The notes: generated from the sequence alone by a model not told the origin. 63,169 nt of DNA, filler included, from Octopus bimaculoides (GCF_001194135.2; 7 parts of 6 records of this genome joined end to end with filler, not necessarily neighbours in it); one strand, 5' to 3'. Shown: positions 27,406 through 63,014, counted from the first letter of the whole stretch. Numbers and translations are program-made.

Positions 27406-27449
27406 ACACAACGTTTCGGCTGATATACCCTCCAGTCTTCATCAGGTGT
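27406..27449 (-). ncRNA. Minimal type I hammerhead ribozyme motif (Penelope-type)
   Basis: rc = acac CUGAUGA a gacugg agggtata ucagcc GAA ACGU U gugu: 4-bp stem I, stem II with one A.C mismatch, palindromic ACGU stem III, GUU cleavage triplet. Confidence 0.75.
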
Positions 27450-27501
27450 CTTGGGGGAAATTTCGAACCTGGGTTCTCATTCCTAAGGTATTTTTCGATG
27501 T

Positions 27502-27560
<59 letters not shown>

Positions 27561-27746
27561 TAATAATAATAACAATAATAATAATAATAATAAACAATCA
27601 ACACTACTAAGTAACAAGAAGAAAACAACAATCAACACTACTAAGTNNNNNNNNNNNNNNNNNNNNNNNNNNNNNNNNNNNNNNNNNNNNTTAATTAATT
27701 AANNNNNNNNNNNNNNNNNNNNNNNNNNNNNNNNNNNNNNNNNNNN

Positions 27747-27794
<48 letters not shown>

Positions 27795-28577
27795 GGAGAG
27801 ATACTATTGACAATAAAATAATTCATTTATATTACTATATTACGTGATATACTATGAATATAACATAACAAACAATTTTTAAAACAAGAAAAGGCCAACA
27901 AATTGTTTCGACTTATTTATATTTTTTCTGATATACATACAGAATAACAGTTCCCTTATATATAAATCCCTTCAGGGTCATGTTTTTAAAATAGACAAAA
28001 TTCCGTATGAATTCAGTTTGCTAGATAAATATATAGACTGATCGATAAATACTTGTGCACTTACGTATGTGTATGTGTGTGATGTGTGTGTGAGTGTATG
28101 TGTACCTTATTATATATTTGTTCATACTTTTATATATACATATGACCTCTTCCATATATATGAAAAATGCCACTGAGTAAGCAAGTTCTAGAATTCATAA
28201 ACTTAATCTATAGAAATTTAAATATAAGGATATTAAATTTGTGAAAAAACTCCATTGTCAAAACTTCTCTAGAAATATGTTTTGACGAAATCTTACGATA
28301 AATTTCCCTTGAAGGAACTGATGGGAAATTGTATATGTATATNNNNNNNNNNNNNNNNNNNNNNNNNNNNNNNNNNNNNNNNNNNNNNNNNNNNNNNNNN
28401 NNNNNNNNNNNNNNNNNNNNNNNNNNNNNNNNNNNNNNNNNNNNNNNNNNNNNNNNNNNNNNNNNNNNNNNNNNNNNNNNNNNNNNNNNNNNNNNNNNNN
28501 NNNNNNNNNNNNNNNNNNNNNNNNNNNNNNNNNNNNNNNNNNNNNNNNNNNNNNNNNNNNNNNNNNNNNNNNNNNNN

Positions 28578-28611
<34 letters not shown>

Positions 28612-29549
28612 AGAATTACTGAGTGGTAGAGAAGTGATAACGAATCTGTGTTAAAATATAGTTAATTATATGGGATTTATGGTATCTAAATTTTATTTTG
28701 TGTCGATAGCAAAATTGTGTGCTATTTACATCACACATAAAATTGCCTGCCTAGAATTAAAACTCTTTTATCATTAAGTGTAAAATTATCCTGTATATTC
28801 AGGTTTGACTGGTTTGAAAACTTATCACCATTCATGTACTCAGTGACTAACAAAATTTTTCATTCAATATAACTAAGTTTGCATTAAAAATTACTTATGA
28901 ACATTCCTTATCTGTAGACGGTTTTCTGTTAGAATTTCCGTCTGACCTTATAGAGGTTAATGAAATATTGTAAATTAATGTTTACATATTTAAATACATC
29001 TGTGCAAACCATCAAGCCATCGTGGAACTTTTGGATCATGATAAGGAACCTGCTGAAAGAAGTAAACTTCCATGGTATTCCATAAGGACTCTTTGCCGAC
29101 CGTTGAATATTCTTGAGACTTCGGAAAATATGCCGTCAGAATGTTATTGAATGATTCCCGGTGATGGCCAGTTTGCTGAAAGCATATGAACCGCTGACGC
29201 TAAGATGAATCTTTACTCTGCGAACTAAAATTACGAAACCAGTGACAACCTCTTCTATATATAGGCTCTCTAGGTTTTATAGGATTGCTGGCCTCGGTAG
29301 TCTTCACACGAGCCTACAACGGAAGGCATATCAAATAACCAACAGTTTTGTTTATCTGCATCAAAATGGAAAGAATATGGATAGATTTTCAGTGGGTCCG
29401 TATTGTATTAAAAAGCACTAAGTGAATATTACCGCAATAAATAGAATGAAATTGGTAAACGACTTGTAAAATATAATGCTGTGTTATTTGTTTGTCGACA
29501 AATGGGTTTTTAGAAATTCAAAATTAGCCGAAAAACAGTTACTTTTATC

Positions 29550-29608
<59 letters not shown>

Positions 29609-32472
29609 GAAAGCATTATTGCTGTTAAGAACAGCAATAATGAGGCGGTTAGCAAGACTTCAACCTTAATAGGCATAATATTAAATGTTTGAANNNNNNN
29701 NNNNNNNNNNNNNNNNNNNNNNNNNNNNNNNNNNNNNNNNNNNNNNNNNNNNNNNNNNNNNNNNNNNNNNNNNNNNNNNNNNNNNNNNNNNNNNNNNNNN
29801 NNNNNNNNNNNNNNNNNNNNNNNNNNNNNNNNNNNNNNNNNNNNNNNNNNNNNNNNNNNNNNNNNNNNNNNNNNNNNNNNNNNNNNNNNNNNNNNNNNNN
29901 NNNNNNNNNNNNNNNNNNNNNNNNNNNNNNNNNNNNNNNNNNNNNNNNNNNNNNNNNNNNNNNNNNNNNNNNNNNNNNNNNNNNNNNNNNNNNNNNNNNN
30001 NNNNNNNNNNNNNNNNNNNNNNNNNNNNNNNNNNNNNNNNNNNNNNNNNNNNNNNNNNNNNNNNNNNNNNNNNNNNNNNNNNNNNNNNNNNNNNNNNNNN
30101 NNNNNNNNNNNNNNNNNNNNNNNNNNNNNNNNNNNNNNNNNNNNNNNNNNNNNNNNNNNNNNNNNNNNNNNNNNNNNNNNNNNNNNNNNNNNNNNNNNNN
30201 NNNNNNNNNNNNNNATATATATATATATATATACATATGATCATCTTGTTTCGGTATAAAGAAATGTCTTTCCGAAAGCATCTAGATTGATATGTGGAAG
30301 GTCTAAATATATCCTGCACAATGGAAAAGCATACTAAGAAATGGCTGAATTCCACATTTTATGTACTGTTAGGAATGGATGTTAGTTTAGTAAAAATCTA
30401 AGACAGAAACAAGTCTGCTAATATTTAATGAGGTTGTTATATAACGTGCAAATGCATTATAATATTTAATTCTAGCTTGTTTTTGTGAGATTCTTTAGTC
30501 TAAGTTAATATTAGTTTACTCTTGCCATAATTCAAGAATGTAAATAAAGAACGTATGGCACTACAGTAACGATATAAACGAAATGTAAACTGTAGACTAT
30601 TATAGAAAATATATATTTATATACAAATACGAATATACGTACATACACTTATGCATATTTGTATACGTACAACAGTTTGTCATGTAATTTCATATAGCTG
30701 TAGCGAAGTACAGAAATAATGACAGGCAGAGATGATGCAAAAGAAGATAATGATAAATCTCAAATCGCCATCAAATATTCGGAAGAGCTGTCTGTAGAAA
30801 TATCTTGATAGTAGATATTATCAAACTTTTATTGATTGCACATTTCTACATTTAGAAGTAAATACTGCTCTCTTTTTATTTAGTTTTTGCTTTTTTTTTG
30901 TTTACAATATCTCTCTCTCCATTTTCACACTTGCATAAAATTCTTTCTATCTTTCAAATAAGATATACTGTAAATTGCATTTGGCATATAACAATTTGCA
31001 TTAAATTGAAACATATAAATTCGAAATTTAATTTCCTCACTGTATTATGCGTTTTATCATAAACACTACTAAGTTGTGTTTTTGTTTACAAAGTTTTGTA
31101 ATTCGCATTCTCCTAGAAATTCATAAAGAATATGGTCTCAGGATAAGACGGAGTTGCAGTTTTATTACATGTGAAATATTAGTATTACTAGGCAATGTCG
31201 ATAAATTACTTTAGTCATTTATACATGAAATACATTTTTCGTATGAACTTCATTATTTTGGAAGCATCTTATTTCTTATGCTGGACAATATGCCAAGTAA
31301 TGTAACACAGGAAGAAAATTTGGTAATTTAAAATGCCAAATGAATTAATTTGTTACAAATTATTCATACGACAAAACAAAGCGTAAGACGTGGAAAATAA
31401 AGAATAATATCAGTTAACTTGTAAAATCTATTCTTCCAATAAGCGTATTTAGAACATGAATAGCCGTTCTTTATGAACAATGGTCTGTGGTTCACTTGTT
31501 TGTAATCTAGTGGTAAAATTACCGTAGTCAAAATCATTGATTCAGAATTCAGAATTGATTTGAGTAGCTTAATCAGAATTTTGCAATAGTGAATTAATCC
31601 TCCAACATGTAAGTTAAGGTTGCTGTCATATTAATATTTAAGGAGTTACTTCCTGAATAGCTGAAATATTATATTTCAATACTTATATATGGTAGGTTTT
31701 CCTGAGAATACTATATAAAATAATCACGAACGAACTATGAAATATATCGTGACAATAAGCAGGAGATATACGATGACAGATTAAAAGCATCGCGTGAAAA
31801 CTGCTAACTTGAAATCATGATCTTGATCCTCCAGATGATGCGAATAAATACATAAAGAGAACTTCGTGAATAGACTCACGAAAGTTAAAACTGAAAACAC
31901 AATATAGATGCTGAAATAGAGAATGATAAAACTAAAATAAAAGCAAATGCGTGTTGAGACAATTAGATTATTGTCAAAGGGACGCAGAATTAATTGAGAG
32001 AAAGACAATGCTTTATAGAATTCAACACAGTTACAGCGACTACGAAAGTATTTGTTAGAAGAGACAATGCCTCGTAATCATATATAATAATTTTGTTTTT
32101 ACGACTGAGTGAAGTGTACTTATCCGACTAAGATTTGTGAGGGAATTAAAACTTGGGAAAATAGTGAATGCGTAAGAAAATTGAAACAATATGAGGGATA
32201 GACATAAATGAAGAAACATTTTGATGAGAATGTGCCAAACAAAACGCAAATAGATACAAATAACTAAACTAGGTATCTGGCCAATCTCACGTGAGGGGAC
32301 AGGAAGCATCCCCTTGTTGTATACTACACCAGAAGTCTAAACAATAGTGTATCTGCTGGCAAAGAAGAACAATGAACAACATTATTAGAGAAGATGAAGT
32401 GAAATCTTAATCACCATTCAATAATTTGGAAGTGAACATCAATAGCTGAAGCCTGCTTTGCCTTAAGTAGCT

Positions 32473-32912
32473 TTGGATGCAAGACCATTCACATATCAAC
32501 AAAATGCTACTAGATTTAGATCAGGGTTTCCGGAACACGCACATACTATACTTGGTGATAGTGTGGTCTATGCAACCCTCTTTCAGGCTAGACCGGGAGA
32601 GATTTGGAAATATTTGGATCTTGTGGTATGGAAAATCATTCAGCGTTGGAATTGTAGTTCAGTGATCCAAGTGGAATGCAGCAACGGAAGCGATTCCTTC
32701 CGACTTGTAATCGTTTATGCTTCATCAGGAGCAGGGTATCTAGATATTTTCAGTCGATTTAAAAACATTCTTGGAACCATCGATTTCATCAATGCAAATA
32801 GGCAATTGGCAAAATCTTTGAAGTCTGCTGGGATAGTACTGGAAATACTAATAACAATGGTGGTATAACAACTTGTAAAAAATTTCGGGCATTTTCCGTA
32901 ATCTAACAGGAA
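32473..32912 (+). pseudogene. L1/Tx1-type APE endonuclease relic
   Basis: FRLVIVYASSGAGYLDIFSRFKNILG (xxVYAP motif) followed in a shifted frame by IGNW (GDWN/GDFN-like). Confidence 0.6.
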
Positions 32913-33761
32913 ATATCTTTCGTGTATTTCTGTGTGAGTTTCTATCCATTAGGAAGTTTGGACTATATTGACATCTTAATAGAATCTTCTATCCAGTGAC
33001 GGATTGCTCTCGTCTGTGTAGACTTGCCATTTCAGGGGCCGAGAAAAATTAACTCTCTTGCCCTGGTATTGAATGCGTTCATATAACAGTAACTGAAGAC
33101 GCGCAAGGTGGACGAAGATGATGTTTCAATTTTGTTTTGCTGGCAACCCGGTTTGTGATTGTTACTGGAAGGACGGATTGCACAAACAGCCGTTTGCAAT
33201 TGTCAGCAGATAAATTCAAGAGGAAGATTTCTATCTGTCATGATACACAGAAAAGTTTCTATGTTAACAATTGAAATACTTTCCGATAAGCTTCATCTGA
33301 ACTACTTGGTGGATGAAGCAGATTTTTTTCTTCTTACAAAAGGCTGGATTGCTCCGGTGATTAGTAGTATTTCCTAGTAATCCAGATTAAACAGCAATCT
33401 TTTGCACCCTTGCTAATCCTGCATTCATGTTTCATTCCCTTCTATCTTTCTATTCATTTTGGAGAGCACTACACCATAGCAGACATAACAGTCCATAACG
33501 GTTATCTCCTTGGCATAGTTCATTTAGTGGCACGCTGAACACGGATCTCCACCTCAGTAACACTTTATTCAGTAGCAAGTAGCAGTATTATATGAACGTA
33601 TTCAATGCCAGGGCAAGAGAGTTAATTTTTCTCGGCCCCTGGAATGGCAAGTCTACACAGACGAGAGCAATCCGTCACTGGATAGAAGATCCTATTAAGA
33701 TGTCGATATAGTCCAAACTTCCTAATGGATAGAAACTAACACAGGAATACACTAAAGATAT
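32913..33761. repeat. 174-bp inverted repeat pair (32913-33086 and 33588-33761)
   Basis: Manual alignment gives about 8 mismatches over 174 bp; spacer about 500 bp. Confidence 0.9.
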
Positions 33762-34601
33762 CTATTATTTAACAGTTGAGTAAATAGGGCGAATGCGTGT
33801 CTCATTTCCGTTGTCTATTTACATTCCAATCGCTCTGACATATTCTCCTTAAGAGACCGTTTTGGAGAATCTCCTTTTGTTTGCTATTTGTTAGAGACGT
33901 GTTGCATTTATCAGAATGCCAGTTTGCTGGCACGTCTATCTGGCGGAGGACAATACCGCGACTGATAAGCAAATATGCGCAGAGACTGTCCAACCTCTTA
34001 AGATTCGTTGTTGGTGAAGAGCTGTGTTCTCCCCGTGCCACACATACCTTCAATAACTCGTCTTTTTTTGTAATGCTATTAAAATGTATAATGCTGCACC
34101 TTGTTTGAATCCCTAAAACTCCGATGATTATTGGCAGCGTTATGACCGTGCTGACTGCATTATGGCAGCATTTCAGAATTACACACTGCCTTATTTTTTT
34201 CATTTTTTAATTCATTTCTCTTCGTATGATATTTCACTTTGTCACAAAACCGAAAGATGAATGCAGCAATATTCATCATCTGGTCATTACGTTAAAGACC
34301 CATGCGATAATTACTTCGTCATTTTCAGGAACTTGATTTCTTCTCTTCTCATGGATTTTCTCTGCACAATACAAACTGAATCGCTCGCAAAAATTCCATA
34401 GAATCATTGATTAAATTCGCTCCTGTCTACGCCATCTGATTTTCGTCCGAGTTATCCTCACGACTTCTGCATTTAAATATCAAGCGGTGTTCCCCTCACA
34501 AATCAGTTCCTATGAAACTATAATCAATCTCTTTCGAAATTCTTTTGTACACTCTATTTGCTGAGTTTGCCATCATCATCAACATCACTATCATCATCAT
34601 C

Positions 34602-34661
<60 letters not shown>

Positions 34662-36445
34662 GTTCAGTAATTTTATTTTTGTAACGTGCTTTCACTTCAC
34701 TACCGAGCGCAGCTCTGTGTGCCTTGGGTATGTGCTGTGGTTTGCTGTGGTGCTCTTATGTTTACTGTATTGAAAGTGTTTTGCGTAGAATGTGTGCAGT
34801 ACCCAGTAGTGCAATTTTCTGTATGTTATATATATTTGTAAGTCCTGGTGTTTTTGTTATGTATTTGTCTGAATATTTTTTTAATTATACCTAAGGCACC
34901 TACTATGATAGGAATTGTTTCTGTTTTTAGATTCCACATTCGAGTTACCTCTATTTCCAGGTCTGAGTTCAAATTCCGCCGGGATCGACTTTGCCTGTCA
35001 TCCCACTCGGGGACGATGAATCATGTATCAGTTCAACACTCCCCCTCCCCCTCCCCACACACTTTCATGCCCGCTGCCGATGCTAGAAGTATTATCGCTA
35101 TTATCAGCACCCTTATCGTCACCGTAATCATCATTGTCATCACAATCATCATCTTTATTATTATTACCATCATCATCGTCATCGTCGTCATCATTATTTG
35201 TCCAGACTCCTTAGTATACTCGTGACAGCCTAACCTGTGGATACCTCATGATGGTATTGCTGGTGTCGTTGTCATCTGTAGACAATTTATACATATGGAC
35301 TATGACTATGTGTCAGAAACAAGTCTGTGAGACTGCCACTGCAATACTAACATTCATTTCAGTCCTCTTGTCGAACTATTCAAATTGTTTTTGTTTTTCT
35401 AAATTGAGAGGTTTGCAGAAACGCAGTAATTATACTAACGTGATTGCCTTTTATGAAGTGTATAACTTGTACTTTTTTTATGAATAGCAAAAAATGTAGG
35501 TATTTGCAGTGCGAAATGTTGCTACATTCGTTGAAACGCAATTGTGCTGTTCGGTCATACCTCAGATACTAAAGTGAATGACAAGTGATATTGTTTATTT
35601 CAGCATCGTAGCAACAAAACAATGGTGAACACAAATAGGTTATTTTTTTTCCTCTTCATTTTTCCATTGAATTTGCTGATTATCTTGGCTGTAGGCAGAT
35701 ATGACATGAATATCTTCAATGGACGAAAAGTTCATTGTGGGACAAGTATTGATATTGCAAATTCTCGTGCAGTGATAACAACGGTTAATAAATTAGAGAA
35801 ATAGAGAAACGGAGGAAAAATAATTGTTGTTAATATGCCATTTCCCAAAATTCACCCATACATCTTTACTTCACTGGAGTCTCTGTTCGAAGTTGTGATT
35901 TTCAAAGAGACAGAAAGTAACAATGAAGCTGAAACCATGGAGTTGAAAGCCTGGTGTGGTATCCACACCGACTGAAGTCAGTTATATTTTTCGAGTTTTA
36001 TCATTTCCAATACAAGAACTAACTTCTAATTTGCACCAATTACATTCATTCGTAGATATATGAAGGAACAGATGTAAAAGGTGTAAACAAATATGAATGT
36101 AATTTTTTGGCAGTTAAGATGAACCACTGACGAAACCTTAAGGTTATTGCAATGCTATTATCAGTTCAAATTTCACTTATCCCTGATTAGCTCCACCCCC
36201 ACTCCGCAACTTTAGGTTATTGTCATTAAAACTTGTTTTAAATTATTTCATTCACTACTTGTAAGTTGGTTTTGCGTTAATATTCTGACGAAATATCTTA
36301 AAATGATTAAATGAATGCATATAAAATTGATTCAACTACAGATAGGGAAATTCCACGAATTTATACAAACACACGCACACGCACATACACACACAGACAC
36401 ACACACACACACACAGACACACACACACACACACAAACACCCCCC

Positions 36446-36476
<31 letters not shown>

Positions 36477-36509
36477 TGAGAAAAATGACAACTGGTTTAC
36501 GCTTTTTAC

Positions 36510-38520: not shown

Positions 38521-38894
38521 AGGGAAGAAAGGGTTTGCTTTTTTCTTTTTTCCTCCTGGGAGATGGCTTTTCTTGATATATTTTGGGATGGTCTGTGGTT
38601 AGAATTTTTTTTAACAGGTGGCTGACATTATTGACATTCCAAGATGTCATTTTTGTCTTTTAAAGAAAGGGAGAAAGAAATGCATGAAGAAGGGTAAGGA
38701 ACAAGGAGAATAGAAAGGAAAAAAAAACATCGGAAAGAGTCCACTGTGTAGACTAAGATCCCCTTTGACAGGTTGCTGGTGTTTATTGAGTGTTAAAAGC
38801 TTTCGGTAAATCCTTCATAGAGTAACTGCTGCACTTTTAAGTCTATAAACAGTTTGACTGCGTTTTTCCCTTGAGACAGTCAAAATGATGTGGA

Positions 38895-38940
38895 GGCCTC
38901 TGATGAGAACCCAATGAGGTTCGAAAATCGATTAATGTTG
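38895..38940 (+). ncRNA. Hammerhead ribozyme-like motif
   Basis: ggcct CUGAUGA gaacc caauga gguuc GAA AAUCGAUU A augtt: perfect 5-bp stem II, 8-nt palindromic stem III, eroded stem I. Confidence 0.6.
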
Positions 38941-39003
38941 TTCGTCATCTTTTCAGTCTGCGGAAAAATGGCTAAAATTTGCAGTTTATGATTATGCCAT
39001 ATG

Positions 39004-39051
<48 letters not shown>

Positions 39052-39955: not shown

Positions 39956-40270
39956 GTTATAGTTGTTAGTTGATACTGCGCACTTATAAACTATGTTTTT
40001 AGTGAGACAGCGGTTATCTAAAGGACAGGCAGCTGAGCATCTGAAACTGCATAGGTTTTTAGTGGGTGTTCCGGATGAATTTGTGAGGGGATTGTTATTT
40101 AGTGAAGAATCGGTGTTCATTTTGTTATTATTGTTGGTGCTAAGGTTATCATTTGATAAGGAGTTGAGGGTAGTGTTGTTGGATTGTATGGTGTGATAAT
40201 TATTGTGTCCGGTGGTATCCTCTGGAATTTTCTCTATTATGCAAACAACCACTAGCTATGCTTAAATTCC
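39956..40270 (-). pseudogene. Penelope-like element, linker / GIY-YIG start
   Basis: CSFRCSAACPLDNRCLTKNIVYKCAVST matches the PLE pattern C.C...CPL...CL...IVY; truncated by a gap. Confidence 0.7.
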
Positions 40271-41490: not shown

Positions 41491-43169
41491 AGCCATCCTT
41501 TCAATTTGTTTATATATATATATCTATATATTATTTCTTATTTGTAAAGTTGAGGAACTGTGTTGCTGAGCCGGAAAGGATTGCCGTTTTGATAGTTGAG
41601 AAATTTAAAAACATTGTATGTCTATAATGTAGCATATAGTGAGAGAGGCAGGGAGAGAGATAGAGTTACCTTTAATCCTTTTGGGGTCGATAAATTAAGT
41701 ACCAGTTGCATACTGGAGTCGATCTAATCGACTGGCTCCTCCCCCAAAATTTCAGGCCTTGTGCCAATAGTAGAAAGGAATATTATTGTAATGAGAGAGC
41801 ATCACATACCGTCAAAGTCAAAGTGGGTCACGAAGCTCAATATACCCATCATGACTACCCGTCTAATGAGTACACCAGGCACATAGATCATGACCATATG
41901 TGCACGACGTGACCTCATATCAAAATAAACAGTGCATGACCTTGCAAATTGGTTCTTTATATCGAGTTCATGAAGGTTACTTTCCGTTGAATGATTTCTT
42001 CATCTTTAAAGTTCTTTCATTCGCCTTTATACGGAATACTGTCATCGGGTACTCAATGTCAGACCCCAAAGTGATCGGAAGTTTAAAGAAAAAGGAACGG
42101 TGTTTTGTACGACTTAGTGGTACTTGACTTAAAAAGGATGTCAAAAGAGATTATTATTTGTTTGTTGTATTTTTTCAGCATGGTGAGTTTCGCTGAGACA
42201 AGACGCACCAATGGCACGACTAAATATAAAACCAAAAAGTAATCGTAACAGTTCAACATTTCATGAAAAAGAAATGAACCTACCATTGTAGTTTTACAGT
42301 GGACGGGAGGAGAAGTTGTAAGGTAAGACACCTGAAGTAAATATTCTTTGTCATAACAAAATATCCCTTCGCTCTTTTTAGGTTCACTTTTTTTTATTGG
42401 TACGCTCGACAAAATAGTATTGTTATGGATCAGGTTGACATGATTATAAGTATATCCTTCAAGTGAGTATAACCAAACTGCAATAGAGTGAACTAATATC
42501 AGCTTTAGATGCAGACAACGTTAACAAAATTTCATAAATTAATTTTAAATGTATGGTTTTACTGAGGCATTATATGTTATTGGGTTGACATAAATTCGTT
42601 GGATTTTCCATATATTTAAATCCTTTTCAATGTTATTTGAATTACCGCAAAATATTTTTATCGTAGTATTTTATAGGGAATTTTTTGTCGCTCTATTCTT
42701 CCTACACAACTTATATTTATTGTTTTTGAAATTTGAATAAGATTTTACAATTTTTTTTCAAAGTTATAACGATTGAGAGCCTAATAGGAAAACAGAAATA
42801 TAAAACGAACGAATTTATTTGAAAACATAATATTATAACATAAAAAGAGAATAAATATTTATTTGGTATATGCACTAGTACAATAAATTACATGAATTAT
42901 TTGATAAGCTATATATATATATAATATTAGGGACAAAATTCAAATTACAGGTAAAAACTCAAATAAAATCAATTTATAAAAAATTAAAATTAAATTGAGC
43001 TTTATAGATAAAATATATATAAAATATATAGTTTTAGGGAAAATAACCAAGTTTCAAGAACTAATCGATGAAAATCCACTATCACATATAGAAAAATTAA
43101 TATTTAAAAGCACAATAAATGAGTATAATATAAAGTAAAGTAAATATCATAAGATAAATATAATAAAAA

Positions 43170-43283
43170 GATTACACGTGTTTCATAACTAATTTTCAAA
43201 TAGAAAAGAAATTTAAATCGATTAAAATCAATTGAAATTATCGAAAATAAATTCTATTCAAAAATATAGCTACTCGTCAGATC
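43170..43283 (-). ncRNA. Hammerhead ribozyme motif with extended stem II
   Basis: rc = gau CUGACGA guagcua [long hairpin] uaguuau GAA ACACGUGU A auc: intact core, palindromic stem III, GUA triplet, 3-bp stem I. Confidence 0.65.
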
Positions 43284-43594
43284 GTAAGTAGAACAATAAT
43301 TAGATATATATCTCTCAACCAACAATAAGTACCAAATGAATTAATNNNNNNNNNNNNNNNNNNNNNNNNNNNNNNNNNNNNNNNNNNNNTTAATTAATTA
43401 ANNNNNNNNNNNNNNNNNNNNNNNNNNNNNNNNNNNNNNNNNNNNGTATATGTACATGTGTGTGTCTGTGCGCGCGCGTATATATATATATATATATATA
43501 TAAGAGAATGTACGAAAAAAAGCAACAACAGACGAGGACAGGTGGTGTAAACAACAAAAGGATGTATTAGTTTGACGCTCGGGAATGCAGAAAG

Positions 43595-43631
43595 TCTTTA
43601 ACGTTTCGAGCTACGCTCTTCAACAGAAAGA
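43595..43631 (-). ncRNA. Hammerhead-like motif with A6U core change
   Basis: rc = ucuuu CUGUUGA a gagc gua gcuc GAA ACGU U aaaga: perfect stems I and II, palindromic ACGU. Confidence 0.6.
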
Positions 43632-43873
43632 ATACGGAGAAAACAAGGAGAAAAACACGGAGAAAAAAAATTGAATGGTGTTTGGTCAACGATCTATCAT
43701 GGTGATTCAAAAGTCACCATACATAGGAAAAATGTATTTTTTAAAATAAGAAACAGTTAAATAAAAAAAAACTGTTTCTTATACAAAAATAAATTGTTCT
43801 TATGTATAGCGACTTTTGAATCTCCCTGTATATATGATAAACTTACTTAGAAATGGATGTGTGGCGTTCAATC

Positions 43874-47433: not shown

Positions 47434-48354
47434 CTACAAGACCCCTTTCGTCAGTTTTCCCGGGCGTTTAGTCTCGATAGCTTTTCGTAATTGTTTCAGC
47501 AAGTGGGCATAGCACTCTCCATAGATGGTGTGACCCTTTTGAAGATAAACACAATACACACAATGCTTTTGCGTCCTCAACAAACTGAGACCTTCCCTGC
47601 AGATGAACGACCTTGGCCTTCTTTGGAGCGGGGTTGGGGAAGGGGTGTTTCCACTGCATGGATTGTCTTTTTGTTTCTGGCTCAAAGTGATGAACCAACC
47701 GCTCATCTTGGATGAGGAAGCGTTCATGGAAACCAGCTGGATCTGTCTCAAAGTCAGATTTTCCTGTGACGTGATCAGCCTGGTGCGATTTTGATCTGGT
47801 GCCAGAAGACATGGCACCCACCGAACATAAATCTTCGTCATGCCAAGTTCATTGTGCAGAATATTCTCAACTCTCTCACAGGATATACTGATAGCATTGG
47901 CTGTCTGATTTATAGTCAGTCGTCTGCCTTCCATCATCATTTGGGGAACACGGTCAATGTTTTTCTCGCTGATGGCAGTTGCAGGATGTCCAGACCTTGA
48001 GTCGTCTCCAAGACTCTTCCTTCTCTTCTCAAATTCAACTTCCAATTTTTGCCTTCTTGATAAAGCTCGAACATCATTCTAGAATGTAGCAACCATGTCT
48101 GCATGTATGTTCTTGGAGGCTAAACCATTTTTCTGCATGTACTTGATAACACCACGACGCCAAATTCTGTCCATTTTCAAGAGAAATCGTTGCTAGTTAC
48201 TTTTGAAGTCTCTTTTGAACAGTCAGATGTCAGTTCACCTGGAAAGAAACAACGCAATTATCAATAAGAGTTGAAATTAATGCATGCAAGATTTCACAGC
48301 TTTAGCACCACTCCTTCAGCGTCAGCCTATGAACTTTCCAACCTCACCCTCATA
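47434..48354 (-). pseudogene. Mariner (DD34D) transposon: 5' TIR plus frameshifted, 3'-truncated transposase
   Basis: TA plus terminus at 48354; ATG at 48174 (MDRIWRRGVIKYMQK); DDSRSGHP, RWVP, QDERLVHHFEPETKRQSMQWKHP, YLQKGHTIYGECYA, KRPGKLTKGVL; ends just before the second catalytic D. Confidence 0.9.
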
Positions 48355-52000: not shown

Positions 52001-52199
52001 TCAGTAAACAGACAGGGTTACAACAAAGGTACTCAGAAGTTAAAGATTCAGTAAAGACCAAGTAATAAAGTTATTACTCTGTGTGTGNNNNNNNNNNNNN
52101 NNNNNNNNNNNNNNNNNNNNNNNNNNNNNNNTTAATTAATTAANNNNNNNNNNNNNNNNNNNNNNNNNNNNNNNNNNNNNNNNNNNNCATGTGTGTGTG

Positions 52200-53420
52200 T
52201 GGTGTAGTTAAAAAATCGTATGTTATACACCTGGTAGTTTGCGGGTAGAGCACGTTTATTAAACAAAAAATTTAATAAAATGGTTTCATTCGAACAAAGT
52301 TGGGTTTTTGACTCGTTTAAAAGAAAAGCTGTCCTCTACATAGACCAAAGCCAGCGGTGTTACTGCCCCCGCGTCAGTTCTGTTCCCACCAGTGCCACTT
52401 GTGTCACGAAGATGGACGTTACCTTCACTAGCACCAACTCTGCACTAACATCCACCACCGCCGATTTCAGTTGGATTACACAAAGGAGGATGGAAAGAAT
52501 GGTTTTGATGTCAGTAGGGGTAGTTTTGATAGAGTCAAATTATGTGAATTAGTAAATTTAGTAACTTATTCAATGGTATTAGCGTAGGCCTGTACAGGGA
52601 TGATGGGTTCATGATTAAGAACAGCATGAGAGGAGGGTATACGTTCGACACCATCATGAAATAAATAACTGTAATAAATTCAAGAAATTCAGCCCGGTAG
52701 AGACGAACGAAAGGAAGATTCCGGTCGTAATTCCAGGATGCCACGCTTAAACTAAACTCGAAACCCTATGAGCCTTTCAAGACATCAAATAGCATCGAAT
52801 TGTACATTCACGTCGAATCCACCGAACGTCATCAAACATTTGCCAATGAACTTCAGCAAGAAGATGTGGTTCATCCTCCGACGAAACCATCTTCAACAAA
52901 GCTGTCGTGTGTGATAGCGAGATAGCGTTACTTAGCCAATACTGAGAAAGAACGGGATACGGGCTAACAACGTCCAGCAACTACGGGAATTTTTATATAG
53001 TATAATTCATAATGTACCATTAGCATTAAAAAAAAAACTATGCTGCAAAAGATTTAATCTTCGCAATGAAGAAACATTTCTCAAACGGTAATAAATTCCA
53101 AAGCTGAGTGAGAAATATCTGTATGAAAAGCATGCCTATCATCACAAAGAGCCAAAATGAAGAATATCACATCAGAAACAAAAGTGATGAAAAGGGAAGC
53201 GACATGCAATTTCAGAAGTAAAGATCGTTGCTTAGTGAAATTCGTTGCATACAGAATTAGGATATCTATCAGCTATACATCAACAAACTACGTAGGGCTT
53301 ACAGAGAACTCTTTCAAAAGTCGCTTCTATCAACACAGCATCTTCTTACGTCAATATCGAAAAAAATGAAATAAAACAAAATTTATTTGGTTCATCGTTT
53401 TAGTAAATCTACCTACATCT
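52200..53420 (+). pseudogene. Penelope-like element, degenerate RT plus GIY-YIG endonuclease
   Basis: FDVSRGSFD..LCELV, GLYRDDG (RT catalytic motif), YIHVES, then CNFRSKDRCL and YVGLTENSFKSRFYQH (GIY-YIG); many stops and frameshifts. Confidence 0.8.
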
Positions 53421-53936: not shown

Positions 53937-53984
<48 letters not shown>

Positions 53985-53988
<4 letters not shown>

Positions 53989-54130
53989 CGACGGACTTCT
54001 TTCAGTTTCCGTCTACCAAATCCACTCACTAGGCTTTGGTCAGCCCGAGGCTATACTAGAAGACTCTTGCCCAAGGTGCCACGTAGTGGGACTGAACTCG
54101 GAACCATGTTGTTGGGAAGCAACCTTCTTA

Positions 54131-54135
<5 letters not shown>
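53985..54135 (-). mobile_element. SINE family B, 5' half
   Basis: Reverse complement of the 44229 head region. Confidence 0.8.
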
Positions 54136-54169
<34 letters not shown>

Positions 54170-54756: not shown

Positions 54757-54798
<42 letters not shown>

Positions 54799-55679
54799 NN
54801 NNNNNNNNNNNNNNNNNNNNNNNNNNNNNNNNNNNNNNNNNNNNNNNNNNNNNNNNNNNNNNNNNNNNNNNNNNNNNNNNNNNNNNNNNNNNNNNNNNNN
54901 NNNNNNNNNNNNNNNNNNNNNNNNNNNNNNNNNNNNNNNNNNNNNNNNNNNNNNNNNNNNNNNNNNNNNNNNNNNNNNNNNNNNNNNNNNNNNNNNNNNN
55001 NNNNNNNNNNNNNNNNNNNNNNNNNNNNNNNNNNNNNNNNNNNNNNNNNNNNNNNNNNNNNNNNNNNNNNNNNNNNNNNNNNNNNNNNNNNNNNNNNNNN
55101 NNNNNNNNNNNNNNNNNNNNNNNNNNNNNNNNNNNNNNNNNNNNNNNNNNNNNNNNNNNNNNNNNNNNNNNNNNNNNNNNNNNNNNNNNNNNNNNNNNNN
55201 NNNNNNNNNNNNNNNNNNNNNNNNNNNNNNNNNNNNNNNNNNNNNNNNNNNNNNNNNNNNNNNNNNNNNNNNNNNNNNNNNNNNNNNNNNNNNNNNNNNN
55301 NNNNNNNNNNNNNNNNNNNNNNNNNNNNNNNNNNNNNNNNNNNNNNNNNNNNNNNNNNNNNNNNNNNNNNNNNNNNNNNNNNNNNNNNNNNNNNNNNNNN
55401 NTATATATATATACATATACATATACATATACTTAATCACTTATTACGTATTCCCGTCATTCTCCGTTTTTTTGTCTGTTTTGTTAGTTTATTGTTATTG
55501 TTGCTGATTGTCAAAAAAACAAAAAAAACAAAAGAAAAACAATTATCTGGAAACATTCCTAACTGGGTGCCTACTTAAGTAATTTTTGCCGAGCTAATTA
55601 ACGTCCAATTAACGTTAAATATGTCTATGTGTGCCTGCGCGTGTGTATTTGGGAGTTATAGATTCCACGTTGTTGTTGT

Positions 55680-55710
<31 letters not shown>

Positions 55711-56479
55711 GTTGTTACTATGTAACTCCATCCCCGTGTCCACTCCCTCAGTCAGTCTTCGATATAAAAAATTCCTACAGAACATACGGAGAACCCTAGA
55801 AATGTAGGCTGACCCGTTGTATAGAAGGTTTCTGAGAATTTATATTTTTCTCTCTCCTTCAAAAAAAGGGAGGGGCCTGTCCCTACCACAACATCCACTT
55901 CTTCCCAGCCATACAAACATCCTTCTCAGATCCCTCCCTGTTGAGTGGTGGTCTTAATCCGTCTCCCGCTCAACAATTCTCTTTTGTCCTTGTGTACTCT
56001 TAGTGCGCTTTACTCCGTTCATTCGTATTGGTCAGGTTTTCTGTTTGTAGAGACCTCCATCTCTCTCTTCCTTCCATTCATCACAGAGATCCTGGAAAAA
56101 AGAGCCAAGGGCTCAGCCCTTCTCTTGATTAAGGCCTCTGCCTAAAACTTCGATATCACCTTGGTCCTTGGGTGTCCTTAATGAAGTTTACGCCGTTGAA
56201 TCATTCCGTGCAGAGTTCCAGTTTGTAGAGATCTACATCTCCCTCTTCCTTCCTTCCACTCATCCCGGAATCCCCGGAAAAAAGGGCGAGGGGCAATGCC
56301 CTTCTTCGCCTGACTAAGGGCTACTCTCAAAATACCAATATACCCAAGTCCTTCGGTGTCCTTGGGTGTCCTTGGGTGTCTCCGAGTACAGATTACTCTG
56401 TTGAACCATTCAGGCCTTGTTTCCAATTTGGGGAGAAAATACTCTTTCTTTTTCTTCTGCTCGTCATGGTAACGCTGAA

Positions 56480-56765
56480 AAAAAAAATTAAGGGTGAGAA
56501 AGACAGAGAGACTGACAGACTGACGGACTGACATATAGACAGAGAGAGACTGACAGAGACTGACAGAGATTGACAGAGACTGACAGAGATTGACACTCTG
56601 ACAGACTGGCGAACTGACAGGCTGACAGACAAATGGAGAAACAGAAAGACTGACAGACAGACAAAAGGATAGACAGACCGACTGACTGACTGACTGACTG
56701 ACAAACAGACCGACAGTCAGACAAGGGAGACAGACTGAGAGCTTGACAGATTGATAGAGAAACTG
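56480..56765. repeat. Degenerate (gactgacaga)n / (GACA)n array
   Basis: Directly visible. Confidence 0.85.
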
Positions 56766-56967
56766 AGACGGAGGTGACAAATGCTTGCCAGGAAGACAGT
56801 CGGGGCCAATGTTCAAGTGCCTGAAGCAGCAGGGACCAGGAGGTGTAGGGGGGAGGGGGGGCTGTATNNNNNNNNNNNNNNNNNNNNNNNNNNNNNNNNN
56901 NNNNNNNNNNNTTAATTAATTAANNNNNNNNNNNNNNNNNNNNNNNNNNNNNNNNNNNNNNNNNNNN

Positions 56968-57153
56968 GTGCGGGTGACACGTAAAAGCACCCACTACACT
57001 CTCTGAGTGGTTGGCGTTAGGAAGGGCATCCAGCTGTAGAAACTCTGCCAAATCAGACTGGAGCCTGGTGTTGCCATCCGGTTTCACCAGTCCTCAGTCA
57101 AATCGTCCAACCCATGCTAGCATGGAAAGCGGACGTTAAACGATGATGATGAT
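56968..57153 (+). mobile_element. Retroposon family D, 3' part
   Basis: Matches 3411-3734. Confidence 0.8.
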
Positions 57154-57164
57154 ATATACATACA

Positions 57165-57330
57165 TGTATACGACGGGCTTCTTTCAGTTTCCGTCTACTG
57201 AATCCACTCACAAGGCTTTGGTCGGCCTGAGGCTATAGTAGAAGACACTTGCCCAAAGTGCCACGCAGTGGGACTGAACCCTGAACCATGTGGTTCATAC
57301 ACAAGCTACTTACCACGCAGCCACTCCTAC
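57165..57330 (-). mobile_element. SINE family B, 5' half
   Basis: Reverse complement of the 44229 head region. Confidence 0.8.
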
Positions 57331-57500
57331 ACCTATGTGTAAGTTTTATTGTAAAATACAGTTGTTTGAATTTGTTGCAGATAGTGGTTTGCATTTGTGG
57401 TGGCAAACAGGAGTGAGAGAGCTAGGGTGTCAAGGGGCAGCAGCCAGAAAAAGTTTAGGAACCACTGATCTGTACCTCCAAAACTGTATTAGGCTGGTAC

Positions 57501-57728
57501 TTAACCCTTTAGTGTTCAGATTACTCTGTTAAAAGTAATACTTTTCCATTCAAATTGTTTTGAATTAATCATGCATTATGTTATAGCTTTGAGGTTTCAA
57601 TGATATGATTGTTTATTTTTAGAATGTCGCTGTAGGTAAGGTGTGAGAGGCTAGATATGGCCAGTTTGAATATAAAACATGTAGAATATTTGGGCTGGAT
57701 ATGGCCGGTTTAAACACTAAAGGGTTAA
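57501..57728. mobile_element. piggyBac-type MITE family F, intact, TTAA TSDs
   Basis: TTAA-ccctttagtgtt ... aacactaaaggg-TTAA, perfect 12-bp TIR. Confidence 0.9.
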
Positions 57729-58149
57729 ATTTACCCTCCTCCGAGGAATAAAAGACAAAAGGTTGGCTCGGTGGGATTTGAAATCAGAACGAAAAGAGGT
57801 GGAACTAATACAACAAGGTACCCTTCCGACACCTTAATGATACTGTCAGCCTGCCACCTTTCATTCTGGTCATAACAACATGCTTCAACGGCTCCATCTC
57901 AACTCAATAATTCTAAATTGTGAGAAATGTGGGTGACATCTTAACAGGGAGATAACTCTCACAATAGTTCACCGTCATCATGACGAAATGGAATCAATTT
58001 TTAGTTGATTTGAACTTAGAAACGTTAAAAGTGTAAGTAATCTAACTGAACAAATTGGTTTTTTCAATGTTATGATTGACACGTTAATGCAAGGGAAGTA
58101 ACTCTCAAAGCATAACGAGGAGATATTTGATAGCATCTCTCTCTCTCTC

Positions 58150-58345
58150 TCTTTTACTTGTTTCACTCATTTGACTGCGGCCATGCTGGAGCACCGCCTT
58201 TAGCCGAATCAAATCGACCCCAGGACTTATTCTTTGTAAGCCTAGTACTTATTCTATCGGTCTCTTTGGCCGAACCGCTAAGTTACGGGTACCTAAACAC
58301 ACCAGCATCGGTTATCAAGCGATGTTGGGGGGACAAACACAGACA
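58150..58345 (-). mobile_element. SINE family B, 3' half, runs into gap
   Basis: Reverse complement of the 44460-44650 tail. Confidence 0.8.
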
Positions 58346-58720
58346 CAAGCATATACACACACATACACACACACNNNNNNNNNNNNNNNNNNNNNNNNNN
58401 NNNNNNNNNNNNNNNNNNNNNNNNNNNNNNNNNNNNNNNNNNNNNNNNNNNNNNNNNNNNNNNNNNNNNNNNNNNNNNNNNNNNNNNNNNNNNNNNNNNN
58501 NNNNNNNNNNNNNNNNNNNNNNNNNNNNNNNNNNNNNNNNNNNNNNNNNNNNNNNNNNNNNNNNNNNNNNNNNNNNNNNNNNNNNNNNNNNNNNNNNNNN
58601 NNNNNNNNNNNNNNNNNNNNNNNNNNNNNNNNNNNNNNNNNNNNNNNNNNNNNNNNNNNNNNNNNNNNNNNNNNNNNNNNNNNNNNNNNNNNNNNNNNNN
58701 NNNNNNATCTATCTATCTAT

Positions 58721-58990
58721 CTACATATCTAAGGTATGAATGCATGCTGATTCTGAGATGCCTTTGATGTATACAACAGAGCAATCCTTCCGGCAAATAA
58801 CATAGTAAATAGTCTTTGCAACTATATCATGCCTCGGGAGCAGGTAGTATCTCGTAGACACTTCGGGACAGCCTTTGATGACGTACGTGGGTGATATCTT
58901 CCACACTGGTATAGTAGAACGGACACTTTCTATCACAGTGTGGAGGTTTGGTGGTATCTTTGTCTCCCCCATTCTTCAACGCCCACAATA
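58721..58990 (-). pseudogene. R4/Dong-type LINE zinc-knuckle relic
   Basis: YVIKGCPEVSTRYYLLPRHDIVAKTIYYVIC matches the H..xGC...RHD.VAK pattern preceding the REL domain. Confidence 0.7.
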
Positions 58991-59232
58991 TCGCATGTCA
59001 AATATGCACTTTCAGTTCATCCATTTTAGCTGAGTGAAACTTGATATTAAACTATGACGTGCACGCTTTCACTGTTTAAATATGAATGACTGACGAGGCT
59101 CGTTTAAAAACGGTAGCTTCCATTTCAATTAAAACCACAGAAGTTCGAAATGCATCGTTACAATTCATCTCCAAAAAGCGGAAATTATTTATGACTCGAC
59201 CCAATATATATATACATATATAAATCTTATTC

Positions 59233-59528
59233 TTAACCCATTACCTCCCATAATTCTATTAACTGGAATTTTTTTCTGAAACTTTGATTTCTAGCATAAA
59301 ACAGCCGTAGAAACACGCTGGAATGATCAAAATAACATTTCAAAATAACATTAAATAGAAATAAGCGAGATATTGGATGAAAAATTAGCAAACCTCATTT
59401 GAATATCAGAGAAATATACCTAGTAGATATAGCAAAAGGGTTAGATATGTGTAAATATTGACAGATAATTACGAAATTTGTAATTTTTAAGTGATCTCAT
59501 ATGAGATCACTGGTAGGTAATGGGTTAA
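59233..59528. mobile_element. Second piggyBac-type MITE, TTAA TSDs
   Basis: TTAA-cccattacctccca ... tggtaggtaatggg-TTAA (14-bp TIR, 1 mismatch). Confidence 0.85.
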
Positions 59529-60533
59529 ACAAGAATATTGTTAACAGTAACTTTGAAGTTTTGAGCAGCAGTCGCACGAGGGCTTAGCTGGCCGAAACTT
59601 CGAAGCCACTGACACTAATATTCTTGTTAACGATTAATAAATTTGTACTCTAGAAAAGTATAAGGCAACCCATCAGATTGATGTAAAACTTTTTTCATTA
59701 TAACTGAACACAAAACGAACATTATATATATATATATATTATCGGTTTATTTTATCAAATTAATATATTTCTACATCATAGCAATCCTAATGTGGTAGAT
59801 TATTTTACATTAAATCAAGATACAAACTCGTTCTTGTCTCTCACATTTTAAAACATCTTTTCCAACGTCCAGTGGTGGTTTTGTACTTGACTTTATGAAA
59901 AGCAGTTACTTTATTAGACAAAACTATCTGGTTCAGTGAATGTCTAGTACAGTGTAAGTCTTTTACATAATCACCTGAAATAGCAACGTATTAACAAATT
60001 AATAATATATCTTCATTAGATAGCGAATCTTGGAATCAATTTATTTTAACTATCATACATCCCTTTAATATACTTTTGAAGATTAAATTAACGTAGAAAA
60101 TATTATAGATATTTATGTAAATTTTCATATAATTGTAGTTATAGATAAAGAGTCAACCTGAAAAAATACCAAAAAAGAATTTTTAATTCTCTTTTGACTG
60201 TTTTCCACGCGTCTTGTATGTGTATCAAATTTAGTTTTTTCGTTTTAAAATGTGAAACAGTTTTATTCACTCACTAAAAAATATTTTGTAAAAATGGCTA
60301 GAAAACATGTCTTTATGTTTCAAAATTAACTTGTTTTATGACATTTTATACCTTTTGATGTGAAGCTTATCAATTTTCAGGTAGAATTTGTTCTGCAAAA
60401 AAATTCCTACAGGAAGTTCATTGCAACCATAACAGAAGACGTAAATGGTCAATAAGTGACTATCCCAAAGGTCACTAAAAAATGGTTGTGTGTTGCTCTA
60501 TACAACTGATGTCTAATATGTCTGTTGAAATTA

Positions 60534-60730
60534 AGGCGGCGAGCTGGTAGAATCGTTAGCGGCATTTCATCCGTCTTTACGTTCTGAGTTCAAATTCCAC
60601 CGAGGTCGACTTTGCCTTTCATCCTCTCGGGGTCGATAAAATCAATACCAGTTGAGCATTGAGATCGATGTAATCGACTTAGCCCGTCCTCTGAAATTGC
60701 CGGCCCTGTTCCAAAATATGAAGCTAATAT
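60534..60730 (+). mobile_element. SINE family C
   Basis: aaggcggcgagctggtagaatcgttagc...gtcgactttgcctttcatcc. Confidence 0.8.
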
Positions 60731-62257
60731 TTCAATTGAAATTAAGGCGGTGAGGTGGCGAATTCATAACCGCACCGGAAAAATATACTTTGCGGCATTT
60801 CTTTCGATTTGNNNNNNNNNNNNNNNNNNNNNNNNNNNNNNNNNNNNNNNNNNNNTTAATTAATTAANNNNNNNNNNNNNNNNNNNNNNNNNNNNNNNNN
60901 NNNNNNNNNNNCTGCACAAATGATTTGTTTATAGTGATCAAATGTATGTGCTGTACATTAGTTCATTCTCTCTATCAAATCGACGCTGCCTGACAAAGGT
61001 GCATGGTGTACCACATGTCAGGTGTCGAAGTGATCACAGAGTAACGTGAGATGAAATGCTTTGCTCAAGAACACAACACACCACCCAGTTTAGGAAATGA
61101 AACCAGGATCTTGCGATCGTGAGTGTAACACCCTAAGCACTAGGTCATGTATACTACTACTACTACTATTACTACTACTGTGATGACGGCGACTGCTGTT
61201 GCTGCTATGCCATCTAATAAAATACTGGAAGTTTTAAGCTAATAAGGATGAGCTATGTGATAGCTTGAGCAGCAAGAAATAGCACCAGATTTCCCTCAAA
61301 TTACATTCTACTGCCATAATAATTAGATAACAAGGGTCTCTGTTACACTTTTTCTTGCTCTTAGCTGGAATGCCCGTGGCTGTGGATCAGCTGGATTAAG
61401 ATTGATATGATTCTGAATAACAGTATTCTTTTCTAATGTAGACAATAGATCATGGTCTAAAATTTTCCAGGGAAGGGCTTAGTCAATCAAAACTCACCCC
61501 AGAACATGACTGGTGCCTTTACTTTATCAACCTGAAAGAATGAGAGGCAAAGTTGACCTCAGTGAGATTTGAAACTAGAACATGAAAAGCTGTAACTACA
61601 CACCACAAGCCATTTTTTCTCATGCTTTAATGATTCTTCCATTCTACTACACTTTAGACAATAACAATAATAACAGTTTTTAATTTTGGCATAAGGCCAC
61701 CAATTTTGAAGGAGGGGTTAAGTTAATTACATCAACACCTAGTGTTTTACAGGTACCNNNNNNNNNNNNNNNNNNNNNNNNNNNNNNNNNNNNNNNNNNN
61801 NNNNNNNNNNNNNNNNNNNNNNNNNNNNNNNNNNNNNNNNNNNNNNNNNNNNNNNNNNNNNNNNNNNNNNNNNNNNNNNNNNNNNNNNNNNNNNNNNNNN
61901 NNNNNNNNNNNNNNNNNNNNNNNNNNNNNNNNNNNNNNNNNNNNNNNNNNNNNNNNNNNNNNNNNNNNNNNNNNNNNNNNNNNNNNNNNNNNNNNNNNNN
62001 NNNNNNNNNNNNNNNNNNNNNNNNNNNNNNNNNNNNNNNNNNNNNNNNNNNNNNNNNNNNNNNNNNNNNNNNNNNNNNNNNNNNNNNNNNNNNNNNNNNN
62101 NNNNNNNNNNNNNNNNNNNNNNNNNNNNNNNNNNNNNNNNNNNNNNNNNNNNNNNNNNNNNNNNNNNNNNNNNNNNNNNNNNNNNNNNNNNNNNNNNNNN
62201 NNNNNNNNNNNNNNNNNNNNNNNNNNNNNNNNNNNNNNNNNNNNNNNNNNNNNNNNN

Positions 62258-62312
<55 letters not shown>

Positions 62313-62760
62313 TATATATGTATATAAATGATGGATTTCCACACAGTATTTGCTGACCAGAATCACTCACAAGGCATTGGTAGCCCAGAGCATTAGGAGA
62401 AGACGCTTGCCTAAGGTGTTGTGCAATGGAACTGAACCTGAAGCAATGTGGTTGCAAAATGATCTTCTTAACCACACAGTCATGTCTATGTCTATATTAG
62501 TATTCAACCAAAACTTTTATTTTGCTGACCCTAGAATGATAAACGGCAAAGTTGATACACCACTTCCATTCTCAGACATATGAAATTGTTATACACAATT
62601 GGTATGGAGCTGACATGAGTCATCAACGGAGGTTTATAAACCATAAAAATTCACTCAGTCACTGCCTACAAGGATATTGTAGTGGATGAAGAAGTTGGTT
62701 AGTGCAGTCCCAAGAGGTTCTGAGTTTAGTCCCTGGCAAGGTACTAAGGTGGATCACAAG

Positions 62761-62801
62761 ATACCTGAAGAAGGCTGGAGCACACAGCTGAAACATAGAG
62801 A
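62761..62801 (+). ncRNA. Degenerate hammerhead motif, same family as 27406-27449
   Basis: atac CUGAAGA a ggcug gagcaca cagcu GAA ACAU A gaga, followed by the same caagatgagga...ttcctcatctc hairpin. Confidence 0.55.
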
Positions 62802-63014
62802 AAGCAACAATCAAGATGAGGATGCTACTCTGACTAATGTCAACTGAATAAAAGGAATTCCTCATCTCAGAAATATAGAATTGTATTAGGGCAAAGTTGG
62901 TGTTGAGACAATTTGAACTCAGAACATAAAAGACTTGCACGTATGTTGTCTGATGTTCTAAGAATTCTGCCAATCTCCTTGTAAGGTTCCTTCCAAAGTC
63001 ATATAGACTCATAA

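Follow-up and report, generated by a model that had tools for sequence, protein, structure and literature searches.

The 63,169-nt stretch of Octopus bimaculoides DNA analyzed here (the window) is a pack of seven stretches from a genome of 2.34 Gb, and it contains five hammerhead ribozyme motifs that a sequence-only reading had connected with Penelope-like elements (PLEs). Each motif was traced to a repeat family of its own, named A, B, C, D, and A-prime in the following. As evident from Table 1, the motifs lie toward the 3' ends of these repeats. With a good deal of confidence we assign all five to the minimal type I hammerheads, each located at the 3' end of its own repeat family: two of these families (A and D) are tails of coding PLEs, two (B and A-prime) lack an open reading frame (ORF) and are likely passengers, and C stands without a link to an ORF. 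Cutting by any of the five is predicted to require a dimer or the help of a protein. The sequence-only reading had counted about four families; the fifth is that of the motif at 62765, an older sister family separate from the family of 27445. Its description of the motifs as minimal type I hammerheads of the PLE type, with a palindromic stem III, in abundant families bearing PLE hallmarks, was borne out. In the table and the text, pLTR denotes the pseudo-long terminal repeat of a PLE, and the papers cited are represented by excerpts.

Table 1. Features of the window, numbered from its first nucleotide
Feature	Position	Strand	Core start	Remarks
Family A, 3' end (pLTR) of a coding Penelope/Poseidon-type element	27292..27516	-		5'-truncated; cut inside a (TAA)n tract, without the tRNA-like cassette
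Family A, minimal type I hammerhead	27403..27452	-	27445	extra A; ACGU as palindrome; GUU before the predicted cut
Family B, truncated copy	38743..39008	+		head-to-tail unit of 304 nt that lacks an ORF and ends with a (CA/TA)n microsatellite
Family B, hammerhead	38896..38939	+	38900	stem II of 5 bp; palindrome of 8 nt; UUA before the predicted cut
Family C, 3' end of a young AT-rich element	42921..43345	-		5'-truncated; element at least ~2 kb; inserts into (TA)n
Family C, hammerhead	43169..43283	-	43280	stem II long; palindrome of 8 nt
Family D, 3' end (pLTR) of a coding Neptune-type PLE	43488..43700	-		followed by (TA)n
Family D, hammerhead-like motif	43595..43631	-	43626	variant core CUGUNGA (A6U), common to subfamilies
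Family A-prime, copy	62578..62888	+		a little more than one unit; old relative of A that lacks the ORF through internal deletion
Family A-prime, decayed hammerhead	62759..62804	+	62765	ACAU for ACGU; stem I broken
Hydra-type PLE relic	39961..40238	-		CxCX5C linker and start of GIY-YIG; family E
Hydra-type reverse transcriptase relic	52188..53000 (approximate)	+		frameshifted; YRDDG motif, thumb

Repeat families carrying the motifs

The motif at 27445 is the tail of a coding element. Near copies of family A shared a fixed 3' end about 105 nt beyond the predicted cut site, and one locus ran upstream into a frame for reverse transcriptase (RT) plus endonuclease. A search with this coding piece returned 2,397 candidates; among the 30 best of them, the end of the ORF continued into a transfer RNA (tRNA)-like cassette in 27 and into the same hammerhead in 24. 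Units of the form pLTR-ORF-pLTR, about 2.67 kb long, were found at 2 of 13 extended loci (L338 and L339), one of them with an inverted 5' copy, and the N-terminal part yielded 517 candidates. The majority sequence, built from loci L171-L200, L331-L343, and L556-L585, was open for 827 codons counted from the hammerhead on. It contained a single ORF with RT and, at the C terminus, a GIY-YIG domain, had no zinc-finger linker, and showed no AUG before residue 93; Pfam RVT_1 matched it with an E value of 2e-5, below the curated cut-off. Judged by these motifs, family A is assigned to the Penelope/Poseidon type. An inverted partner was present upstream in 44 of 70 copies, which is a PLE signature (PMC8557442), and the family displayed partial tandems of the pLTR, 5' truncation, and inverted 5' copies, all hallmarks of PLEs. 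In the copy at 27445, one pair of stem II and one pair of stem I are mutated. Another copy, L566 (G000:C9:26719159-26722656), has an open frame of 855 codons. Just upstream of the A hammerhead, 20 nt at 27462-27481 (-) match the B hammerhead (core end, stem II, and GAAA) with a loop shorter by 4 nt, and 1 of 1000 shuffles scored as high; this stretch may be the relic of a second hammerhead.

Family D, young like C and with best copies 96-99% identical, was followed upstream through a CT-rich stretch to a Neptune-type zinc finger and GIY-YIG domain. The D-type hammerhead was reached in 9 of 30 endonuclease loci, and L345 represents the exact subfamily. A CX2-5CxxC linker and GIY-YIG upstream of the pLTR and a (TA)n target place D in the Neptune type, an assignment made with no RT domain recovered. 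The sequence-only reading had given all five motifs a CUGANGA-like core. In D the core is CUGUNGA across the subfamilies, and the window copy reads CUGUUGA, a change (A6U) that had gone unflagged. Of the first 100 matches listed for the genome-wide pattern, about half were of the CUGUNGA type. A6 matters for hammerhead catalysis. We file D as a hammerhead variant and as a predicted ribozyme; a literature search for hammerheads with A6U turned up only seemingly unrelated papers. As for the mapping of family ends to PLE pLTRs, A and D thus led into coding PLEs, and none was reached for C.

A-prime, with 810 candidates and best non-self matches 71-80% identical, forms head-to-tail units that lack an ORF, measure about 300 nt, and hold a single type I hammerhead. 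Each unit consists of the end repeat, roughly 45 nt from the start of the ORF, its final bases, the tRNA-like cassette with A and B boxes retained, and the hammerhead, of which the core and cut site are visible in the alignment, with CpG decay. Its majority sequence was 77-88% identical to the A end repeat over three blocks. The roughly 45 nt of the A ORF start were joined directly to the last ORF bases in 14 of 30 loci, the window copy included, and an inverted partner was seen in 10 of 30. A-prime is an ORF-less internal-deletion relative of A that has kept cassette and hammerhead. The part of the window in which it lies (60912-63169) is depleted in CpG, with an observed/expected ratio of 0.25 compared with 0.72-0.88 elsewhere, which fits the CpG decay of the motif at 62765.

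The B hammerhead had 28 exact matches genome-wide; in 18 of these copies the end lay 66-90 nt downstream, in most cases within a microsatellite, and the unit junction was crossed head-to-tail in 14. No common upstream sequence was seen among the B copies. Neither B nor A-prime has the loop-loop contacts of a canonical hammerhead, both being of the minimal type with a stem I of 3-4 bp and no defined loop 1. The two families appear retrozyme-like, set apart from the members of that group by the minimal hammerhead, and are known here from genomic copies.

Family C is young (97-98% identity), has two 3' ends that both enter (TA)n, and dropped off steadily toward the 5' side, with 2125, 529, and 134 candidates. 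The layout of its motif resembles that of motifs found behind endonucleases in the Hydra-type families E and F, and a Hydra-type coding parent for C is likely. Both of its 3' ends (window 43030-42921, -) carry CCCTAA right before (TA)n, and a TTAGGG run occurs about 90 nt upstream of the C copy at L118; these are possibly related to telomere repeats. At L424, a C fragment adjoins a coding stretch that we take to be retrotransposon gag-like.

Both coding relics that had been reported alongside the motifs are real PLE fragments, and both are Hydra-type; the one at 52188-53000 was compared by eye with published Hydra alignments. The relic at 39961 belongs to family E, which carries a sixth hammerhead of its own. 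Hammerheads with 8-nt palindromes were seen behind Hydra-type endonucleases in families E (L137, L154, L155, and others) and F (L151:5278). Pfam gave no match for the two relic pieces, nor for the Hydra and Neptune endonuclease pieces. The relics lie on stretches other than those of A, A-prime, B, and D. As mobilizers of the window's motifs they were rejected for A and D, being Hydra-type and the parent of neither coding family.

Some observations weigh against this assignment of the five motifs to PLE-related families. The D endonuclease loci stopped short of the hammerhead, at gaps or by truncation, in 21 of 30 cases, and the D core departs from the consensus at position 6. Inversions were almost absent from B (0 of 28 and 1 of 30), because of which its dependence on PLEs rests on motif type, fixed 3' end, and microsatellite target; at 1 of 58 B loci, some of them repeated, a Neptune-type endonuclease fragment was located 1.1 kb upstream on the same strand across a gap. 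For C, no ORF was reached in two upstream walks, one 3' extension search, and 13 extended loci; the walk of about 2 kb ran into low-complexity DNA and assembly gaps.

The tRNA-like cassette of family A

The end repeat of family A holds a tRNA-like cassette, and the majority sequence preserves both its A box and its B box. Among 17 tRNA matches compared, the best was genomic tRNA-Arg(TCT), which agreed at 47 of 73 positions (z 8.1). A 37-mer from the cassette had 831 exact matches in the genome, and 5' ends were counted for the first 70 by position, of which 8 ending at gaps were excluded. Of the remaining 62 copies, 42 ended 0-15 nt upstream of the probe, 1 ended at 16-66 nt, and 19 extended further into the end of the ORF. 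The tRNA +1 position is 8 nt upstream of the probe, and the density of 5' ends was 5.8 per 100 copy-nt in the pile-up at the cassette versus 0.5 in the rest.

In animals, RNA polymerase III (Pol III) stops transcribing at four T. TTTT was absent from the 2,481-nt majority ORF. Three null models gave expectations of 2.8, 4.8, and 4.2, with P values of 0.027, 0.002, and 0.010, respectively; the test was post hoc and covered one family, with single-copy controls that are decayed. One full copy was free of TTTT over 3,010 nt, and other copies have a few. Depletion was found neither in six single-copy Hydra-type ORF pieces nor in the majority of family D. Hydra and Neptune pieces served as controls because no other Poseidon-type family was found; a search for such families returned only matches of at least 56% identity, which were taken as family A.

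These observations can be accommodated in a scheme of copying. The PLE enzyme would nick AT-rich or microsatellite DNA and begin to reverse-transcribe from a fixed point downstream of the hammerhead. A start at a fixed internal site is established for the Poseidon element PAc (PMC11167929), and fixed 3' ends were observed in this analysis. Reverse transcription would usually halt early and leave short, often fold-back stubs, as observed for A. Most of the sampled cassette-bearing copies of family A do begin at the cassette, likely because Pol III would start the template RNA there and RT starting from the pLTR-ORF junction would run off its 5' end. The RT of PAc starts internally, just past the pLTR-ORF junction, and needs the ORF-start sequence on its template (PMC11167929). 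A transcript from the cassette of the upstream end repeat would therefore give stubs of about 290 nt, as seen, with no need for a separate short interspersed nuclear element (SINE). Longer A copies would arise from read-through or from hammerhead-cut, circularized RNA; circular templates have been proposed for PLEs (PMC4209133). Cap-independent translation following ribozyme cleavage has been reported in RNA viruses (PMC13725137). Taken to its full extent, the scheme would make A a coding Penelope element that captured a tRNA-type Pol III promoter and purged terminators over its 2.7-kb sense strand. Its template would be uncapped, unspliced, and cut by the hammerhead; it would spawn SINE-like stubs, and a sister lineage that lost the ORF would have become A-prime. 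We offer this whole only tentatively and think it rather unlikely to hold in full. The signs from which Pol III transcription is inferred are indirect, namely the 5' pile-up and the absence of TTTT.

The pile-up might instead reflect RT that stalls or snaps back at a hairpin, with the cassette a passive remnant of a tRNA or SINE and the transcript a normal polymerase II product. This account comes close to an even chance. A hairpin spans the pile-up, several insertions are palindromes centered on it, and the lack of TTTT was noticed post hoc in one family, with P 0.027 under the strictest null. However, no 5' end fell at 16-27 nt, in the hairpin's outer arm, which is mildly unfavorable to stalling; both promoter-type boxes, A and B, are unbroken in the majority sequence and kept in the older sister family, and TTTT is not depleted in the six other PLE ORF pieces or in the D majority.

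A separate, self-propagating SINE family that parasitizes the coding element appears improbable as the source of the tRNA-headed short copies. Such copies do form the majority of cassette-bearing copies, have A and B boxes at the 5' end as a SINE does, and lack TTTT from the cassette to their end in the majority sequence, and A-prime is a real ORF-less derivative. They do not, however, make up a separate non-coding family: the cassette lies inside the coding element, and short and long copies share the majority and the variant sites, with about 5% divergence each (9 copies were excluded, 8 as ambiguous or opposite arms and 1 as intermediate). Moreover, the ORF-start stretch, which a different Poseidon enzyme requires on its template (PMC11167929), lies beyond the point where the short copies end.

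Several results on family A speak against the proposed explanation as a whole. ARAGORN, run down to -ps80, returned no tRNA call for the cassette, and Rfam found neither tRNA nor hammerhead in L198 1050-1520. The hairpin that overlaps the 5' pile-up has a predicted energy of -9.6 kcal/mol. RNA reads from three raw runs of one study, possibly of a related species, covered family A equally in both directions and the end repeat more than 100-fold deeper than the ORF, as passive read-through predicts. Read ends did not accumulate at the cut site predicted for family A, where the sequence-only reading had proposed to look for RNA 5' ends at the NUH triplet. A predicted 38-47-nt intron leading from an AUG in the hammerhead to the ORF was unsupported, no such joint being among those listed; about 20 reads per run crossed into the ORF.

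Motif recognition and stem pairing

A strict descriptor, comprising the CUGANGA core, stems I and II, a perfect palindrome, and NUH, matched the window three times, at 27445(-), 38900(+), and 43280(-), and none of 30 dinucleotide shuffles; by this descriptor, motif frequency is above that of shuffled sequence. Allowing one core mismatch added 43626(-) and one weak match. The relaxed descriptor by itself was not above chance, with 5 matches compared with 2.2 +/- 1.3 in the shuffles. The motif at 62765 was missed by both scans owing to CpG decay (ACAU) and a broken stem I, but its family retains the motif. Hence all five can be accepted as motifs of real families, with the qualification that 43626 needs a mismatch and 62765 is decayed. 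The CUGANGA plus GAA core with NUH is present in the majorities of A, B, and C.

That the stems are unrelated between families and still pair, as had been asserted, was confirmed in a test for which motifs were harvested by core and palindrome, with stems I and II left free. The majorities of A, B, C, D, and the Hydra-type E were used; A-prime and one mis-parsed C cluster were left aside. Pairing was found at 18 of 20 positions of stem I and 19 of 20 of stem II. Over 120 permutations the means were 10.0 and 9.4, and the observed values were equaled by 1 and 2 permutations, respectively. Genome-wide, a single pattern covering the A and D types gave 17,224 matches versus 17 for the reversed pattern, an excess of about 1000-fold. 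At L513, L528, and other places, further hammerhead families with canonical cores and a short stem II were noticed among the first 100 pattern matches.

The occurrence of the motifs together in one window had been presented as a pattern. They are spread over five separate stretches from different genomic places (G000 C3, C2, C14, C5, and C37627), and their closeness in the window, a product of packing, is meaningless. The genome pattern for the A and D types matched the window twice against 0.43 expected (P ~0.07), and therefore no motif cluster exists in the window.

The view that all five are short non-autonomous hammerhead families mobilized by PLEs, as the sequence-only reading had it, is very unlikely as a whole. 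It agrees with sampled copies that are mostly 200-500 nt long, and it applies to B and A-prime with their ORF-less head-to-tail units. It does not apply to A and D, which continue upstream into RT or endonuclease coding sequence as tails of coding PLEs, and it sits badly with C, which spans at least ~2 kb with no ORF reached and a steady 5' drop-off (2125, 529, 134). Chance matches or dead look-alikes free of ribozyme ancestry can be dismissed almost entirely: the relaxed descriptor is matched by chance, and an Rfam search of the window (E up to 5) gave microsatellite-driven matches and no hammerhead among the 150 of 186 matches listed, but the three strict matches as opposed to none in shuffles, the excess over the reversed pattern, and the pairing of family-specific stems all contradict them.

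Two further features of the window belong to other elements. A 214-codon frame at 47434-48078 (+) presumably encodes a Tc1/mariner-like transposase, and at 4918-5290 (+) there is what we take to be a C-terminal fragment of a non-LTR retrotransposon with a restriction-enzyme-like motif.

Comparison with known systems

The literature already contains minimal hammerheads of PLEs, stubs left by truncation, inverted copies, and retrozymes derived from PLEs. What is new is a coding Poseidon-type family with a tRNA-like cassette in its end repeat, together with its ORF-less sister A-prime. Literature searches found no coding PLE with a tRNA-type promoter, no Pol III-made coding retroelement, and no octopus hammerhead survey; Repbase, Dfam, subscription papers, and the library of PMC13282606 lay outside their scope and may already list the families. 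That octopus repeat library study lists 31 recently active PLE families (PMC13282606).

A coding PLE whose pLTR holds a tRNA-like promoter offers a direct test of which polymerase makes the PLE template and why the template is unspliced. A-prime gives a sequence-level view of a retrozyme-like unit arising by deletion of a PLE ORF, a course that has been argued from phylogeny (bioRxiv 10.64898/2026.07.22.740005). Family D, very abundant and young and keeping an A6U core, provides a naturally occurring case in which to test whether catalysis is required of PLE hammerheads. Octopus hammerhead stubs that look SINE-like can be tails of coding elements.

Cervera and De la Pena (2014, PMC4209133) described minimal type I hammerheads in PLE pLTRs of metazoans. 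Their motifs resemble ours in the short stem I, the extra base between positions 9 and 10.1 (here in A and D), and the palindromic stem III, and likewise in the many families per genome, mostly as single motifs of truncated PLEs. The fixed A6U core of family D is, by contrast, not among the variants described in the excerpt of that paper. From the Hydra clade (Craig et al. 2021, PMC8557442), the relics share the CxCX5C linker and RT motifs; with the Neptune clade of the same paper, D shares the CX2-5CxxC linker and has similar (TA)n targets. The single octopus Hydra hammerhead given in the excerpt matches none of the five motifs.

Metazoan non-LTR retrozymes, which have been proposed to derive from PLE pLTRs, consist of head-to-tail units near 300 nt that lack an ORF and hold a single type I hammerhead (PMC7229834; bioRxiv 10.64898/2026.07.22.740005), as do B and A-prime, whose units fall within the 150-450 nt taken as the size range of retrozymes. 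The latter differ from the retrozymes of PMC7229834, as far as the excerpt describes them, in hammerheads of the minimal PLE type, in arrays of monomers to dimers, and in being known from genomic copies; A-prime also displays the junction of the ORF deletion directly.

Anolis PAc (Frangieh et al. 2024, PMC11167929) is close to family A, having a C-terminal GIY-YIG domain, a hammerhead at the pLTR-ORF junction, genomic 3' ends slightly more than 100 nt into the frame, and no RNA-seq ends at the cut site. Unlike PAc as presented in the excerpt, A has a tRNA-like cassette in the pLTR, no sense-strand TTTT in the majority, and no in-frame AUG before residue 93. The SINE-like Sm-alpha and Sj-alpha elements of Schistosoma (PMC2770079, PMC6765202) are likewise short, abundant repeats that put a tRNA-derived head together with a hammerhead; these have been described as non-coding, whereas here the tRNA-like part is inside a coding PLE. 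Cassandra, Helenus, and Ajax (PMC10886601) similarly carry a Pol III-type sequence derived from a small RNA in the terminal repeat of a retroelement, but these are non-autonomous LTR elements with no hammerhead noted in the excerpt, whereas family A is a coding PLE.

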